This document shows, one piece after another, positions 23,943 through 30,417 of a stretch of DNA of 46,760 nucleotides. The first letter of the stretch is position 1, and the number at the start of each line of letters is the position of its first letter. The translations under genes were made by a program, and so were the position numbers. Below the pieces are notes generated by a model. That model saw nothing but the letters and a program-made list of their open reading frames with translations, searched no databases and was not told where the DNA came from. This stretch comes from Promethearchaeota archaeon (GTDB taxonomy: Archaea > Asgardarchaeota > Lokiarchaeia > Sigyniarchaeales > SOKP01). The stretch is taken from assembly GCA_048940925.1 (NCBI GenBank), contig JBHLOC010000037.1, positions 1-46,760 on the forward strand. Direction: 5' to 3'.

Positions 23943-26227
23943 TCTCGATAAACTTCTTTAAAATTATCAGATAATTCAAATTGGGCATTAGTATGCCAAA
24001 ATTTGAAATTTATAACATGAAAAAGCTCTCCCTTAAATTGTTCCTTTTCTTTATTTGTTAAAATATGTTTTAAAATCAAAGTTAAAGGTCTTGGTACTAG
24101 TTTTGAAAAATACTGGAGATCACCCTTTTTTATATAATTATAAAATGAATCTGTTTCGTTTAATTTAAAATATTTTGTAGGTATCAATTTTTCCTTTTGA
24201 TCATTTACTAAACTTAATTCTTGTTTGATCTTACTCCTTACATATTTAGGAAATTCAAGATTAATATTAATGCAATATTCATAATGCTTATAAAATTCAA
24301 GCAATTCACGTTTTTCTTCGGCATCTGAAATTTTCGCGATATATCTGTCTAAGAATTCTAGAAAATTTTCAAGTTTTTGTTCCTTTGACTCTCGTTCTTC
24401 TAAATAATTAATAAAATCATTAAAAATCTCTATCAAAGACCAATTTTTATTTTCTTCAAATTTGAAAAATTTTTTTGCATAATCATTTATCCATTCAAGC
24501 ACATAAGATTTCCATTCGAGATTAATACCTCCTATACGTTTTTCTAGAAAACGATGAAATCTATTTGCAAAATTAACTGGATCAGTTACATCTTTTTCGG
24601 GTTCTTCCTTTATAAATCGATTAATCGTAGAATGTCTAAGTATATAGCCTAGTAAGTAATGTAATTCAGTAGAGAGTTTCTTAAACTTCTCTACATGCAC
24701 TTTTAACAAATTTACATTATTTTCCATTTGAATTTCAGCAAAAGATATTAAATCTTCTAATTTTAATCCAATCTGGTCGAAAAATGAATCAACATTATTA
24801 TTTACTAGTGCATTAAACTTTCGTTGCAGTTTATCCTCATTATATTCAAGATCCTTAGTTAAAATTGAATTAAGTTCAATTTTATTGATAATATATTCTT
24901 TAAATTTCTCAATAAATTTCAATCCTAAAATTTTTGCTGGTTTTTGCTCATTATTGAATTTATTATTAAGGTTTTCTATTAATCGTATTGTTAAGTATTT
25001 CATTCGACGTATTGATAGATAACTAGGAAGTGATGTTCGTATCAAACTAAGACTTGAATTAATAATTTCTGAAAAATAATTAAAAACAGAACTTAAATCC
25101 ATAACTCTCAAATTCTCTTTCTTTATAACTGAATCACTTATGAATTTGTAAGCTATTTGACAAATGTTGTTAAAATCTTCATTCTCTAACTTTCCCTTAT
25201 TGTTAATAAACTGAGTATATTTTTCCAAAATGTTATAAAGATCACCCATCTCACCAGAAGTGAGAAAATTCCTAGAATATTCTAAAAATTTATTTAAATA
25301 ACGTTCTAATTTTAATAAGATCTTAAATGTATTTTGGATTAACCATTGAGAAGTTACAGGTTCTAAGACATTATTAATCTCATCTTTTATATTATTAATA
25401 AGAAGAAGGATAATTTTATCTTGATATTCATCTAAAGTTCCTATATTTGCTAGATTAATAAGACTTGTCCCAAGACTTAAAGTTTTATCAACAATAAAAT
25501 TAGCGCTCGGTTCTGATATCGCATATTTAAGATGCTGTACTGCTTGTTTTCCTTCATATAAGGTCATAGATTTTTCAAATTTGTGATTAGATAAATTTAT
25601 CTGAATAGGTTGCTTATGCCATAGAATATCTACATTAGACTTAATTTTTCCATATGTGATTAACAATTTCTCTTCGGTTGGTAATGATGTACTTATCCCA
25701 ATTAATTTTTTATTCCACTTATCCTCAACTAAGTCTCCATAGAGCTTTTTACTAAACCGAGAGGCAAATTTATTATATAATTTTTGTTTTTCTTCATTGT
25801 CAAATTCTGGACGGTCAGCAAACTCCTCAACTTCATAAAAAAGCTTACTTATGTTATCGATAGATGCTCTTGATTTATGTACATCCAAATATCCTGTTTC
25901 TGGTTTTAAAGCAAGCAATAAACTTTCACAATCTTTAAATTTTCCAGGAATTAAAATCATTGATTTTGGATATATGTTAGTTCGAGCAGTTTTCTCATCA
26001 ATATTAAATAAATCAAATTCAATACTAAATAATTCTGACCCAGTATAGTCTCTCAAAAGTGCATTGTACATCATTAAAAATTTTATAACTTCTTGGGAGA
26101 GTTGATTAACTTTTTGTTTTGTTAATCTTCCTGGACCAATTACATCTCCAGTAATAAAATCGTTTGGGGAGGAATAACCAAATATTATAGAAAATTGATA
26201 ATTTATGGATTCTCGTGTGGTTATCAT
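23930..26227 (-). CDS. Large hypothetical protein with an N-terminal alpha/beta (longin-like?) domain and a helical body
   Basis: 765-aa ORF; fold suggestion is by eye only. Confidence 0.8.
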   Translation of the reverse strand: MITTRESINYQFSIIFGYSSPNDFITGDVIGPGRLTKQKVNQLSQEVIKFLMMYNALLRDYTGSELFSIEFDLFNIDEKTARTNIYPKSMILIPGKFKDCESLLLALKPETGYLDVHKSRASIDNISKLFYEVEEFADRPEFDNEEKQKLYNKFASRFSKKLYGDLVEDKWNKKLIGISTSLPTEEKLLITYGKIKSNVDILWHKQPIQINLSNHKFEKSMTLYEGKQAVQHLKYAISEPSANFIVDKTLSLGTSLINLANIGTLDEYQDKIILLLINNIKDEINNVLEPVTSQWLIQNTFKILLKLERYLNKFLEYSRNFLTSGEMGDLYNILEKYTQFINNKGKLENEDFNNICQIAYKFISDSVIKKENLRVMDLSSVFNYFSEIINSSLSLIRTSLPSYLSIRRMKYLTIRLIENLNNKFNNEQKPAKILGLKFIEKFKEYIINKIELNSILTKDLEYNEDKLQRKFNALVNNNVDSFFDQIGLKLEDLISFAEIQMENNVNLLKVHVEKFKKLSTELHYLLGYILRHSTINRFIKEEPEKDVTDPVNFANRFHRFLEKRIGGINLEWKSYVLEWINDYAKKFFKFEENKNWSLIEIFNDFINYLEERESKEQKLENFLEFLDRYIAKISDAEEKRELLEFYKHYEYCININLEFPKYVRSKIKQELSLVNDQKEKLIPTKYFKLNETDSFYNYIKKGDLQYFSKLVPRPLTLILKHILTNKEKEQFKGELFHVINFKFWHTNAQFELSDNFKEVYREWMK

Positions 26228-26519
26228 AATCTAATTCTGATAATAAATCTTAGATCTTTAATTTATATATATTACGTATTAATCTTACTTACGTAATCCT
26301 TAAATAAATTTAACTAGTTGTTTAATTATTTTAAGGTTTATATAATATTAAAATTTATTTTTAATCAGCTTGAAAATATAATAAAAAGATATTGTGATAT
26401 CTCAAAATTCTGGAAACTTTCTTAATAAAATAAGAGTGCATTAATAAAAATATAATAAGCAAAATTATTATTATAAATAATATAAGTTCAAAATTTTAAA
26501 GCTTAATAGGTGTAGTTTT

Positions 26520-26924
26520 ATACAATTCGGGTCGGATTTAGGAATTAACCAAGAAGATATCGAAAAAATTAGCCCTCAAATCACATTTATCACATCAAAT
26601 GCGGATATAGAGGCAATAGCTTTAGTTAGCTCCGAAGGTTATCAAATCGCATTCTCTGCATTACCCCAATATCATGTTGATGGAGATCAGTTTTGCGGAC
26701 TTGCAAGTGCTTTATTGATGACAGGAAGATCGACTATTCAAACTCTATTCCAAGAAGATTTAAGTGAAGTCATTGTTCGAGCCGAAAATGGGTATATTGT
26801 AATTACAAATGCAGGTAGATTAGTTATTGTATGTGCTGGTACAATAATTGATACCTTAATGAAAACTGTGAAAGTAATGAGGATCGCTGCTAAAAATTTA
26901 TATAAAATTTTTGCAGAGCGCTAG
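26520..26924 (+). CDS. Roadblock/LC7 (MglB-like) domain protein; probable ATA start, about 134 aa
   Basis: In-frame IEAIALVSSEGYQIA...FCGLASALL...EVIVRAENGYIVI; SD AGGTG at 26508-26512; no canonical start before 26715. Confidence 0.85.
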   Translation: MQFGSDLGINQEDIEKISPQITFITSNADIEAIALVSSEGYQIAFSALPQYHVDGDQFCGLASALLMTGRSTIQTLFQEDLSEVIVRAENGYIVITNAGRLVIVCAGTIIDTLMKTVKVMRIAAKNLYKIFAER

Positions 26925-27085
26925 TTAGTATTTCTATTAGTATATAAATGTTCAATTTAATGTATTAGTATTTTTACTATACTTTTGCTCTAACTGAATT
27001 TTCGGAAAATTTCTCAAGAAATTCAACAAGTTTTTAAAGGTTGAAATACTGTAAAGTTTCATAATATTAAATAAAGCATTGGTCT

Positions 27086-27142
27086 ATGAATATGGCAAAA
27101 GTAATACTTTTTTCTTGGCAGTGGCCTTGGTGGCAGCAATAG
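27086..27142 (+). CDS. Trp-rich leader peptide (trpL-like) MNMAKVILFSWQWPWWQQ
   Basis: ATG at 27086 (second ATG at 27092), four TGG in six codons, TAG at 27140-27142, 139 nt upstream of trpB2. Confidence 0.75.
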   Translation: MNMAKVILFSWQWPWWQQ

Positions 27143-27281
27143 AGCCATATGCATAGGATTATACTAAACTAATATTTCATTTTAATATTTTAGTTTTATA
27201 ATATTAAAATTTCACTTAAATCTGCATTATTTTATTGATTTCCAATATTTTAATGAAACACTTTAAAAATAACAATAGTTT

Positions 27282-28697
27282 ATGGGAAACAAAATGGTAG
27301 ATAATTTTAATGGAAGGGTTTTGTTACAGCCGAATGAAATACCAAAAGAGTGGGTAAATATTTTACCAGATTTGCCCTCTCCTATGACGCCCTTAATAAA
27401 TCCAATGGATGGGAAACCAGCGCCCCCAGAAATGGCGTTTTCAATATTTCCAAGAGAGTGTGTAATGCAAGAAGTATCTCAAGAACCATTAATTCCTATT
27501 CCAAAAGATTTAAGGGAAATTTTTGCGAGAAGTTATAGACCAAGTCCTCTTCATCGGGCTTTAGGATTAGAAAAGGTTTTAGGAATAGAAGGTGATCATA
27601 TTAAAATTTTTTATAAAAATGAATCATTTTCTCCTACAGGTTCTCACAAACCAAATACAGCTATAGCACAAGCATATTATGCGAAAAAAGAAGGGCTTGA
27701 AGAACTGGTTACAGAAACGGGAGCTGGGCAATGGGGTTCAGGATTATCTTATGGATGTAATTTATTTGGATTGAAATGTACTGTTTATATGGTCAGAGTA
27801 AGCTTTTTTCAAAAACCAGGTAGGAAGATTTTGATGACTGCTTACAACGCTGAAGTGTATGCAAGTCCCTCAAACCTCACTGAATCAGGAAGACAATTTT
27901 TTGAGAAAGACCCAGAACATCCTGGTAGTTTAGGAATCGCGATATCAGAAGCATTAGAACACAGTCTAAAAAGTGAAAAAATAAAATATTCTCTTGGAAG
28001 CGTCGTAAACTTTGTACTCTTACATCAGACTATTGTAGGTCAGGAAACAAAAATCCAATTGGCGAAAATAGGCATAAATGAACCTGATATACTAATTGGA
28101 TGTATGGGAGGTGGATCAAATTTCGCTGGATTTATGATTCCTTTTATTAAAGATAAGCTATATGGTAGCCTTCCAGATCTAGAAGTAATAGGTGTCGAAC
28201 CAAGAGCATGTCCTAGTGTTTGTAAAGGGCAATATCGATGGGATTTTGGTGATACTTCTATGAAAGGTCCAATTGTAAAAATGCATACTTTAGGACATTC
28301 ATTTATTCCAAGTCCAATTCATGCTGGAGGGTTGAGATATCATGGAATAGCTCCAATAATTTCAATTCTTAATAATAATAAAGTTATCTCTGCAACTATG
28401 CATCATCAAACAGAAGTTATAAAGTCTGGACTTCTCTTCACTAAAGCTGAGGGAATCCTTCCTGCTCCTGAAACAGCACATGCTATAAAAGAAGTAGTTG
28501 ATCAAGCATTAAAAGCAAAAGAAAATAATGAAAAAAAGGTTATCGTTTTTAATTTCAGTGGTCATGGATTTTTTGATTTATTGGCTTATAAACAATTTAT
28601 GGCTGGAGAATTAGAGGACTACGAATTATCCACAGAGGAAATTCAAAAAGCTTTATCATCACAAGAAATGCCTAATATTGATGAAACTCAATTTTAA
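27282..28697 (+). CDS. trpB2: Tryptophan synthase beta chain, type 2 (TrpB2)
   Basis: SPTGSHKPNTA, TETGAGQWG, GGGSNFAG, IHAGGLRYHG, PAPETAHA, SGHG. Confidence 0.95.
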   Translation: MGNKMVDNFNGRVLLQPNEIPKEWVNILPDLPSPMTPLINPMDGKPAPPEMAFSIFPRECVMQEVSQEPLIPIPKDLREIFARSYRPSPLHRALGLEKVLGIEGDHIKIFYKNESFSPTGSHKPNTAIAQAYYAKKEGLEELVTETGAGQWGSGLSYGCNLFGLKCTVYMVRVSFFQKPGRKILMTAYNAEVYASPSNLTESGRQFFEKDPEHPGSLGIAISEALEHSLKSEKIKYSLGSVVNFVLLHQTIVGQETKIQLAKIGINEPDILIGCMGGGSNFAGFMIPFIKDKLYGSLPDLEVIGVEPRACPSVCKGQYRWDFGDTSMKGPIVKMHTLGHSFIPSPIHAGGLRYHGIAPIISILNNNKVISATMHHQTEVIKSGLLFTKAEGILPAPETAHAIKEVVDQALKAKENNEKKVIVFNFSGHGFFDLLAYKQFMAGELEDYELSTEEIQKALSSQEMPNIDETQF

Positions 28698-28778: not shown

Positions 28779-29846
28779 TTGAACATAGTCTCACTCTTTA
28801 TTTTTTGCTTTTTATATTCTTATGGAATATTGCTTATTTATATCACTTATTTAGCAAAAAAAAGAGGGGAAAAAGGAGCTTTTATTAACAACTTCTTTGT
28901 CACGCTTGTATTTATTGGATCAATTACGATTTACCTTTTTAGCATTTATTATATAAATCCAGTGGGTCAAGTTTTTTTAGCTTTTCCGTTTGATATATTA
29001 TTAATTTCTTTTATTTTTATATTCATTCCATTGTTTTTTCTATTGGTTTTTCGTGAAAAAATGAGAATCAAAGGAAAAAATTTACGAAACAGAAAAATAA
29101 AACAATTTAAACTTGAATTACCATTGAAATATGAAATTTATAGGAAACTAACTCATTTAGTCGTTTTAGGAATAATTTTGTTTTATTTTACCCTAGGTTA
29201 TTTAATACAAGATTTTTTCATTTATTTTTTAGAATTTTTTCCTCAATTTCAAACAAGAATTTTGGATATTACAAAAGATACAATGATTTTTACTCAAAAT
29301 TTAGTTATTTTTTTAGTAGGAATCTCTTTGATAGGTTTACTAACTGCAGATTTTATTAGAATTTTGATCCCAAAATATTACCCATTGAAACCTATCAATC
29401 TATTGTTACGTGAAAAAGAAATGTATATGAGGTTAGGTCCTCAAATCTCTATGAGTATTAGTTGTTTTTCGACTATTATTCTTTTTGGTTATGTCCAACC
29501 ACTAGGCCCCCTAGTAATAAGTGCATCAATGACGATGGCAATTTTTGGGGATATAGCGTCTAATTTAATTGGAAAATCTATTGGAAAAAAACAAATTAGA
29601 AATACAAATAAAACTTATGAAGGTTTATACGCAGGGATTATTACTGCTTTCATTTCTGGAATTGCTATATTATTGTTGTTGAGGAACTATTATAACAAAA
29701 ATCTCTTTTTCTTATTCTTTATTCCATCTATTGGTGCTCTAATCATTGGCATAATAGATTATGTTAATTTAGAAATTGACGATAATTTATCATACAATTT
29801 CAGTTTATCAATAATTTTATTTTTCATTTCAATTCTTTTGATATAA
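28779..29846 (+). CDS. Polyprenol/phytol/diacylglycerol kinase-like (CTP-dependent; Sec59/VTE5/DGK1 family) membrane protein
   Basis: RKLTH, GDIASNLIGKSIG, NKTYEG, DDNL. Confidence 0.82.
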   Translation: MNIVSLFIFCFLYSYGILLIYITYLAKKRGEKGAFINNFFVTLVFIGSITIYLFSIYYINPVGQVFLAFPFDILLISFIFIFIPLFFLLVFREKMRIKGKNLRNRKIKQFKLELPLKYEIYRKLTHLVVLGIILFYFTLGYLIQDFFIYFLEFFPQFQTRILDITKDTMIFTQNLVIFLVGISLIGLLTADFIRILIPKYYPLKPINLLLREKEMYMRLGPQISMSISCFSTIILFGYVQPLGPLVISASMTMAIFGDIASNLIGKSIGKKQIRNTNKTYEGLYAGIITAFISGIAILLLLRNYYNKNLFFLFFIPSIGALIIGIIDYVNLEIDDNLSYNFSLSIILFFISILLI

Positions 29847-29904: not shown

Positions 29905-30417
29905 ATGAAAATGTCAGAAGAAAAATTAAAAATAGACAAAATCTCGAAAGGCACTGTTATTGATCATATTGATGCTGGTTATGCATTAACAATTCTTAAT
30001 CTTACAGGTCTTGATGAATCAAAGAACCTAATAACTATAGGTGTTAATGTTTCCTCAAAAAAATTTCAAACTAAAGATATCATTAAAATTGAAAATGTTT
30101 TTCTCAATGAAACACAGATGCAACAAATTTCTATATTATCACCTAATGCAACTATCTCCTTAATTGAGAATTATAAAGTAATAGAAAAGAAAAAAGTGAA
30201 ACTCCCTGATACAATAAAAAAATTAATTTTGTGTATTAATCAAACTTGTATTTCAAATTCAGAAAAAGAACCAATTGATACAGAATTTTTAGTTTTAGAA
30301 GAAAAACCTTTAAAAATTCAATGTGTTTATTGTGAACGTATATATAAGTTGGAGGAAATTGTGTTTACTTCTAAAGAAAAAAAAGAGAAAAAAGTGAAAC
30401 AAGCAATTTATTTATAA
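29905..30417 (+). CDS. pyrI: Aspartate carbamoyltransferase regulatory subunit
   Basis: GTVIDHI, KDIIKIE, SPNATIS, CINQTCISN, CVYCE. Confidence 0.96.
   Translation: MKMSEEKLKIDKISKGTVIDHIDAGYALTILNLTGLDESKNLITIGVNVSSKKFQTKDIIKIENVFLNETQMQQISILSPNATISLIENYKVIEKKKVKLPDTIKKLILCINQTCISNSEKEPIDTEFLVLEEKPLKIQCVYCERIYKLEEIVFTSKEKKEKKVKQAIYL

Follow-up and report, generated by a model that had tools for sequence, protein, structure and literature searches.

Leader-peptide attenuation is the textbook example of transcription-translation coupling and has been demonstrated only in bacteria; our full-text literature search found no archaeal leader-peptide attenuator. In the enterobacterial trpL system (Rfam RF00513), a short ORF with tandem Trp codons near its 3′ end is carried at the 5′ end of the Trp-biosynthesis transcript. 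The Trp-codon segment forms a hairpin with the segment that follows the stop codon (1:2 pairing), and the leader further comprises 2:3 and 3:4 pairings and a GC hairpin followed by a U run. In actinobacteria, Trp-codon ORFs precede several Trp loci; these leaders contain conserved GGCC/GCY complementary triples built on the UGG codons, together with predicted terminator and antiterminator hairpins (PMC1262725). Mycobacterial polycysteine leaderless sORFs constitute a 'ribulon' over several loci of one pathway. No classical terminator is involved there: the stalled ribosome blocks an RNA structure that would otherwise sequester the RBS of the following gene, so that control is exerted on translation (10.1101/834739). 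A different logic operates in the E. coli tna operon. The short leader peptide TnaC, which contains functionally important Trp and Pro residues and ends Pro-stop, senses free Trp, and the ribosome near the stop codon governs a downstream factor-dependent terminator, leading to induction of a catabolic gene. Trp-responsive control of trp genes is also exerted by proteins: archaeal TrpY is a regulator that binds DNA, and B. subtilis TRAP binds GAG/UAG repeats. As to transcription termination in archaea, U tracts and aCPSF1 jointly determine how efficient it is (PMC8716108), and the target of FttA is RNA emerging from the polymerase (PMC11616081).

Here we analyze a candidate leader of an Asgard archaeon (Promethearchaeota archaeon, assembly GCA_048940925.1) located in a stretch of 46,760 nucleotides (contig JBHLOC010000037.1), hereafter the window, to which all coordinates given without a contig name refer. 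Its central element is an upstream ORF (uORF) rich in Trp codons that precedes the trpB2 gene. As in trpL, the Trp codons are near the 3′ end of a short ORF, at what would be the 5′ end of a Trp-biosynthesis transcript; the Trp-codon segment pairs with the segment following the stop codon, and a U-rich tract lies downstream. However, the Trp codons are interleaved (W-x-W-x-W) instead of tandem, the gene presumed to be regulated is a stand-alone trpB2, the host has a eukaryote-like RNA polymerase with U-tract/FttA termination, and the leader has no covariance-model match, no 2:3/3:4 pairing and no GC hairpin with a U run. A cmscan of positions 26000-28000 with E-values up to 10 returned four chance-level matches to unrelated families and none to Trp_leader (RF00513). 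The actinobacterial triples resemble the GGC...GCC pairing seen here, and Trp-codon ORFs before several Trp loci are common to both; this likeness to the actinobacterial leaders is a descriptive one. With the mycobacterial sORFs the Asgard leader shares a cognate-codon-rich frame that recurs at several loci of one pathway, whereas its spacer is 140-350 nt long and an RBS-sequestering pairing was not found. Like TnaC, it would be a short leader peptide in which Trp and Pro matter, with a ribosome close to the stop codon acting on a factor-dependent terminator further along. In contrast to TnaC, it has several Trp codons and precedes biosynthetic genes, and its final residue differs between versions (Q, R, L, S, F, W or A); the arrangement Trp...Asp...Pro-stop before a tryptophanase gene is absent, trpB2 being the downstream gene. 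Compared with a TRAP target, the element has a coding signature, and its repeats are UGG and number only 3-5, against nine to eleven GAG/UAG. As in the leader-attenuator class, the ORF is rich in cognate codons, is conserved with pathway genes and has structure over its regulatory codons. The uORF leader would resemble bacterial leader-peptide attenuators in function, yet it falls outside the Rfam Trp_leader family.

A Trp-codon-rich uORF upstream of a stand-alone trpB2

The uORF sits 150 nt upstream of trpB2, in the interval between a roadblock/LC7 gene (ending at 26924) and trpB2 (Table 1). Its last eight codons read W-Q-W-P-W-W-Q-Q and are followed by a TAG stop codon at 27140-27142. The Trp codons at 27116-27118, 27122-27124, 27128-27130 and 27131-27133 represent four of six codons, and the sequence is exactly that given in a preliminary description of the locus, which had also pointed to a GC-richer island in AT-rich DNA. 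This island has a GC content of 0.42-0.43, compared with 0.12-0.25 on both flanks (60-nt windows). The ATG at 27086 that had been taken as the start codon is present and in frame, but this extra ATG is common to the window and its two closest relatives only; in relatives generally, it is the ATG at 27092, the second one, that is conserved as the start. The host assembly comprises 4.8 Mb with 29.6% GC and an estimated completeness of 100%. In a six-frame scan of this genome, the uORF is the sole intergenic M-started ORF of at most 45 aa with at least four Trp within seven residues, which makes it more than a chance occurrence, and a looser pattern (W-x-W at most three residues from the stop) gave four matches in the whole genome. 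Neither a tRNA nor an Rfam family, Trp_leader and T-box included, was found over the GC island. A W-Q-W uORF preceding an MFS_2 transporter gene (host contig C70) was considered as a second leader; it is unconserved at 13 orthologous loci, so we regard this look-alike as due to chance and it serves as a negative control.

Table 1. Elements of the uORF-trpB2 region, in window coordinates
Feature	Coordinates	Strand	Evidence or remarks
Candidate promoter P1 (BRE-like purine-rich stretch and T5A TATA box)	27024..27038	+	54 nt before the conserved uORF ATG
Leader ORF (uORF)	27092..27142	+	16 codons from the conserved ATG
Trp-codon cluster W-Q-W-P-W-W, four UGG codons	27116..27133	+	15-mer conservation in the genus
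Hairpin H1	27130..27148	+	5′ arm 27130-27134 (last Trp codon region), stop codon in the loop, 3′ arm 27144-27148
CA-NN-GG(A) box 3′ of H1	27152..27159	+	C, A, G and G columns nearly invariant in alignment A3
U-rich tract and A/U hairpin H2	27180..27209	+	arms 27180-27189 and 27200-27209
Imperfect stem-loop H3, CAUU...UAUUG / loop AUUUC / CAAUA...AAUG	27224..27256	+	highly conserved block
SD-like GGGAA before trpB2	27284..27288	+	conserved alignment columns; GGUAA in relatives
trpB2 (TrpB-like PLP enzyme), presumed regulated gene	27294..28697	+	NF009057, TIGR01415

The downstream gene, previously described as the tryptophan synthase gene trpB2, does encode TrpB2, with scores of 630 bits against NF009057 (cut-off 366) and 589 against TIGR01415 (cut-off 519); the protein has a length of 467-471 aa. 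Its start had been placed at 27282 and has to be moved: the conserved initiation codon is the ATG at 27294 (M-V-D...), 6 nt downstream of the SD-like sequence. TrpB2 is the only enzyme of the Trp pathway found in the host genome. TrpA (Trp_syntA), IGPS and PRAI were not found in this assembly of 100% estimated completeness, and TrpB2 consequently stands alone. A stand-alone TrpB2 is usually given a role in indole salvage, and the state of the host enzyme fits this role. The host appears to be a Trp auxotroph that retains only an indole-salvaging TrpB2 under tight Trp-responsive control.

Several other loci of the host genome touch on this metabolism. On contig C24 (45245-45385; L032), an open frame of 64 aa matches the C-terminal end of the chorismate-binding domain over 47 residues; it resembles what is left of a trpE/pabB-type gene, which would agree with the Trp pathway having been lost. 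The genome also contains two beta-eliminating lyases of the tyrosine-phenol-lyase/tryptophanase family (C41:177604-178734, L161, and C78:66028-67368, L162). One of them scores barely above the tyrosine phenol-lyase equivalog cut-off, and the other, of 537 aa, belongs to the tryptophanase subfamily. Either lyase could be a source of phenol or indole in the same indole-salvaging cell.

The uORF is conserved as a reading frame within the genus

In a first sample of the genus, the uORF was present in all 16 genomes that possess trpB2 (77-91% identity), at a distance of 130-175 nt upstream of the gene, and consists of eight variable codons followed by W-Q-W-P-W-x-W-x-stop. Twenty further genomes of the genus, located by means of the 15-mer at 27116-27130, also carry it. 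This 15-mer occurs once in 37 of 54 genus genomes and twice in one, and the reversed-pattern control gave no occurrence in the same 54 genomes. Furthermore, it is lacking in 8 of 8 sampled genus genomes without trpB2. The genome with two copies (G069, a 5.2-Mb assembly; C1:674450 and C17:41780) could have a duplicated trpB2 locus or be a mixed bin.

Forty-eight distinct versions of the uORF were collected in the family. Almost all have 15-18 codons, and the ATG, the frame and the position of the stop are kept. Counted from the ATG, eight codons precede the motif, or ten in one subclade that has an additional Trp. Codons 2-8 are free to vary, and all three stop codons (TAA, TAG and TGA) are in use. 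Within the motif, Pro is encoded by CCT, CCC, CCG or CCA and Gln by CAG or CAA. Of the 48 versions, 31 have stops in frame +1 and 21 in frame +2. The combination of a fixed ATG, length and stop with variable codons and synonymous Pro and Gln changes is the pattern of a translated frame, and this comparison supports the view that the uORF is a translated, Trp-linked and cis-acting leader ORF. The invariant Q and P of the motif suggest a constraint beyond codon counting.

Three sister genera of the family have kept the roadblock-trpB2 synteny and lost the uORF, showing that trpB2 can be expressed without it. In the sister genus g13 (L193-L196), five in-frame Trp codons (W-R-W-Q-W-A-W-R-W) were observed around 217 nt upstream of trpB2, but their frame lacks ATG, GTG and TTG; translation from an ATG located in another frame would yield a 20-aa hydrophobic peptide.

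The region contains other open frames. A hydrophobic peptide read in another plus-strand frame over the island (27079-27156) was discarded because both other plus frames are mostly closed in relatives. On the minus strand, a 31-aa ORF spans the island (27059-27154). A second small ORF on the plus strand (27253-27300), of 15 codons including two Trp, starts at a conserved ATGA-AC box and ends with UGG-UAG overlapping the initiation codon of trpB2; the two closest relatives alone share this frame and length, and elsewhere in the genus the ORF beginning at the box ends earlier or is in another frame.

Related ORFs precede Trp genes throughout the order

The other three families of the order provided 13 trpB2 loci (53-60% identity, GC content 0.31-0.58). 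At nine of them, the gene is preceded by an ORF ending with W-[P/A/S]-W plus one to three residues, and these nine ORFs have the nucleotide core UGG-SCU-UGG-C in common. Across the order as a whole, weaker W-[P/A/S]-W forms before trpB2 occur in all four families. A uORF ending W-x-W-stop was found at none of 78 trpB2 loci of unrelated bacteria and archaea, and at none of 31 loci of other Asgard families by this pattern, which would miss single-Trp leaders; as a control, the same scan gave a single match on about 170 reverse strands. Taken together, the 109 loci outside the order gave no match upstream of trpB2.

The motif is also associated with a second Trp locus. Canonical trp operons were examined in four relatives; three of these, with trpD, trpC/F and trpB confirmed by Pfam, possess a similar ORF about 200 nt before trpD. 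In one genome, the leader of the trp operon and that of trpB2 share identical last eight residues. Hence the uORF and its regulatory codons are conserved in relatives, upstream of and co-oriented with Trp genes. The proposal of a Trp-linked leader ORF, made from the window alone, is supported by the conserved frame, ATG and length, the synonymous changes of Pro and Gln, a presence that tracks trpB2, and the motif before the trp operons of relatives.

Candidate promoter, hairpins and U tract of the leader

Among 17 orthologues of the genus, the only invariant block 5′ of the uORF is P1, which is a candidate promoter. In the GC-rich relatives of the order, an unmistakable TATA box is situated 34-46 nt before the uORF ATG and no comparable TATA precedes trpB2. 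This position of the TATA box would place the uORF at the 5′ end of a transcript, following a 5′ UTR of 12-30 nt. The 3′ half of H3, for its part, could be a proximal TATA box located at -50 to -38 of the trpB2 ATG and not the arm of a stem-loop; such a proximal promoter has to be considered because a sister genus without the uORF keeps the H3/H4 block. If present within H3, it would make the leader one of two inputs to trpB2 expression and not the sole one.

The alignment of the leaders (A3) shows H1 as a helix of 5-6 bp, according to column counts, in which the last Trp codons pair with nucleotides that follow the stop codon. Compensatory versions of H1 exist in three subclades (GUUGGC/GCCAAC, GGCGUU/AACGCC and GGUCUU/AAGACC), and in the first subclade two base pairs alternate between G-C, A-U and G-U. 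In the other families an analogous hairpin of 5-7 bp or longer is found at the stop codon. H1 hence overlaps the regulatory Trp codons, as does the structure in known attenuators, and its geometry is that of the E. coli trpL 1:2 hairpin. The individual pairs of H2 are formed in 74-91% of class I sequences, with U-A to C-G compensation at four pairs. The H3 block is retained in the sister genus that lost the uORF. A further hairpin, H4, just 5′ of the SD, occurs with compensatory changes in most relatives and is absent from the window. The small, conserved GC hairpin H1, the other leader hairpins and the candidate proximal promoter had not figured in the preliminary description. The covarying helices H1, H2 and H4 along the spacer argue for a single RNA that comprises this 200-nt stretch and the uORF.

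A long-range stem enclosing the ORF (27086-27095 with 27145-27154) was rejected: apart from the window, just its two closest relatives have the two arms fully complementary, and elsewhere the stem is reduced to UGGC/GCCA; the z-score of the plus-strand fold is -0.3. In the GC-rich family f4 (L021, L026 and L031), the spacers between uORF and trpB2 contain repeated CACGTG and GCATGC-type palindromes and a duplicated GTTACTTTTCCCA box, and at the corresponding place the genus of the window has a AATGCGCATT palindrome. The f4 spacer palindromes may be operator sites of a transcription factor or RNA hairpins.

A run of at least five T within +10 to +75 of the uORF stop is present in 35 of 38 relatives, compared with 41% of intergenic windows. 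The oligo-U tract of most class I members lies exactly 31 nt after the stop codon, and a pyrimidine tract takes its position in the GC-rich relatives. The T-rich tracts noted earlier at about 27175-27200 do exist, but the window has only runs of four T (27181-27184, 27190-27193 and 27196-27199) where most relatives have T5-T8. A terminator scan detected no bacterial-type GC hairpin followed by a U run, in line with the classical GC-hairpin terminator having been reported as absent. When the Trp cluster was forced to be unpaired in minimum free energy folds of 12 leaders, only H1 changed, and no consistent terminator/antiterminator switch emerged. A complementarity search revealed no segment able to pair with the 3′ arm of H1 and none sequestering the SD. 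As no 2:3/3:4 switch was found, the mechanism probably differs from that of trpL.

A model for Trp-responsive control of trpB2 and its alternatives

Given its place in a conserved folded leader and its recurrence before Trp genes across the order, the uORF is very probably a Trp sensor read by the ribosome, a kind so far demonstrated in bacteria only. We estimate at roughly 70% the probability that the uORF is a leader peptide gene sensing the charging of tRNA-Trp at the 5′ end of the trpB2 transcript, and controlling read-through into trpB2. Starting from the uORF with its conservation and linkage to Trp genes, from H1 and H2 and from the enriched U tract, we infer that uORF and trpB2 are co-transcribed, that ribosomes stall, in which direction regulation works and that termination is the step under control. 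The promoter situated about 54 nt before the ATG would start an RNA whose first feature is the 16-codon ORF ending in Trp codons. With ample charged tRNA-Trp, the ribosome would complete the uORF and depart, H1 would form and the leader RNA would be left bare, so that RNA polymerase, some 30 nt later, could terminate at the oligo-U or pyrimidine tract, either intrinsically or aided by aCPSF1/FttA. When Trp is scarce, the ribosome would stall on the UGG cluster and melt or occlude H1. Positioned about 10 nt behind a polymerase at +31 to +37, the stalled ribosome could block termination; more polymerases would then read on into trpB2, and TrpB2 would make Trp from salvaged indole. A stalled ribosome uncoupled from the polymerase could in principle have the opposite effect and favour termination by FttA instead of preventing it.

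The more specific version of this proposal is tentative, and we place it below even odds. It would be ribosome-mediated transcription attenuation operating in Asgard archaea on a eukaryote-like machinery, in which the ribosome on the Trp cluster behind the polymerase blocks U-tract/FttA (aCPSF1) termination, with trpB2 and the trp operons forming an order-wide 'Trp ribulon' distinct from the bacterial terminator/antiterminator switch. More generally, a conserved Trp-codon leader in Asgard archaea would mean that the closest prokaryotic relatives of eukaryotes control gene expression by the position of the ribosome, and the leader is a concrete, mutable cis-element for the interplay of the archaeal ribosome, RNA polymerase, Spt4/5 and FttA at U-tract terminators.

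The same Trp-sensing, translated uORF could act after transcription, through folding of the leader, mRNA stability or initiation of trpB2 translation, with no premature termination and possibly with a proximal promoter of trpB2 in addition. The hairpins H2 to H4, conserved up to the SD, would suit this explanation, as would the candidate TATA box at -50 to -38 with the H3/H4 block kept in a genus devoid of uORF, the weak U tract of the window and the mycobacterial poly-Cys precedent (10.1101/834739). However, neither for the Trp-codon region nor for the arms of H1 did we find complementarity to the region of the SD and start codon, the constrained folds leave the surroundings of the SD unchanged, the spacer is long (140-350 nt) and an oligo-U tract is enriched at a fixed distance; we consider post-transcriptional control to be unlikely. 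Distinctly unlikely, too, is an arrest by the nascent peptide, in which W-Q-W-P-W in the exit tunnel would, in the manner of TnaC, stall the ribosome when free tryptophan or indole is present, the signal being the metabolite and not the charging of the tRNA. Such a peptide would account for Q and P being conserved as amino acids through synonymous codon changes, for the small residue (P, A or S) always found between two Trp across the order and for the fixed distance from the ATG to the motif. Yet neither the residues that follow the motif nor the last sense codon are fixed, and a Pro-stop ending is missing; several Trp codons have been retained although one Trp would suffice for an arrest peptide, and the nucleotides are constrained by H1 as well. 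Moreover, the downstream genes are biosynthetic (trpB2, the trpD operon), in agreement with starvation, and not an excess of Trp, as the inducing condition.

Finally, the ribosome might not read the element at all. The UGG-N3-UGG repeats and hairpins would then form the binding site of a TRAP-like or TrpY-like regulator, or the Trp-rich peptide would act in trans, the open frame being incidental or having another role. UGG triplets do recur every 6 nt, the 15-mer is very highly conserved at the nucleotide level, palindromic boxes are present in the spacer and one genus has no in-frame ATG. This explanation is nevertheless very improbable in view of the ATG, frame, length and stop kept in 48 versions in which the other frames are closed, of wobble positions that vary synonymously and of the strict, oriented linkage to two different Trp loci. 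TRAP-like control was rejected in particular, no TRAP homologue (PF02081) being found in the host genome (completeness estimate 100%) with a search that detected the B. subtilis control. These comparisons leave the sensing of tRNA-Trp charging by a translated leader as our preferred reading.

Neighboring genes

Downstream of trpB2, on the plus strand, a 355-aa ORF (28779-29846) with no Pfam or NCBIfam match occupies the place where pyrB would normally be expected, and is followed by pyrI (29905-30417), encoding the regulatory chain of aspartate carbamoyltransferase. On the upstream side, the frame of the roadblock/LC7 gene (26481-26924, plus strand) has no in-frame ATG, GTG or TTG before 26715, and its Pfam Robl_LC7 match begins at residue 37 of the stop-to-stop frame (around 26589). 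Since this match starts upstream of the first canonical initiation codon, the gene either uses a non-canonical start codon or is damaged. Throughout the family, the roadblock/LC7 gene is syntenic with trpB2.
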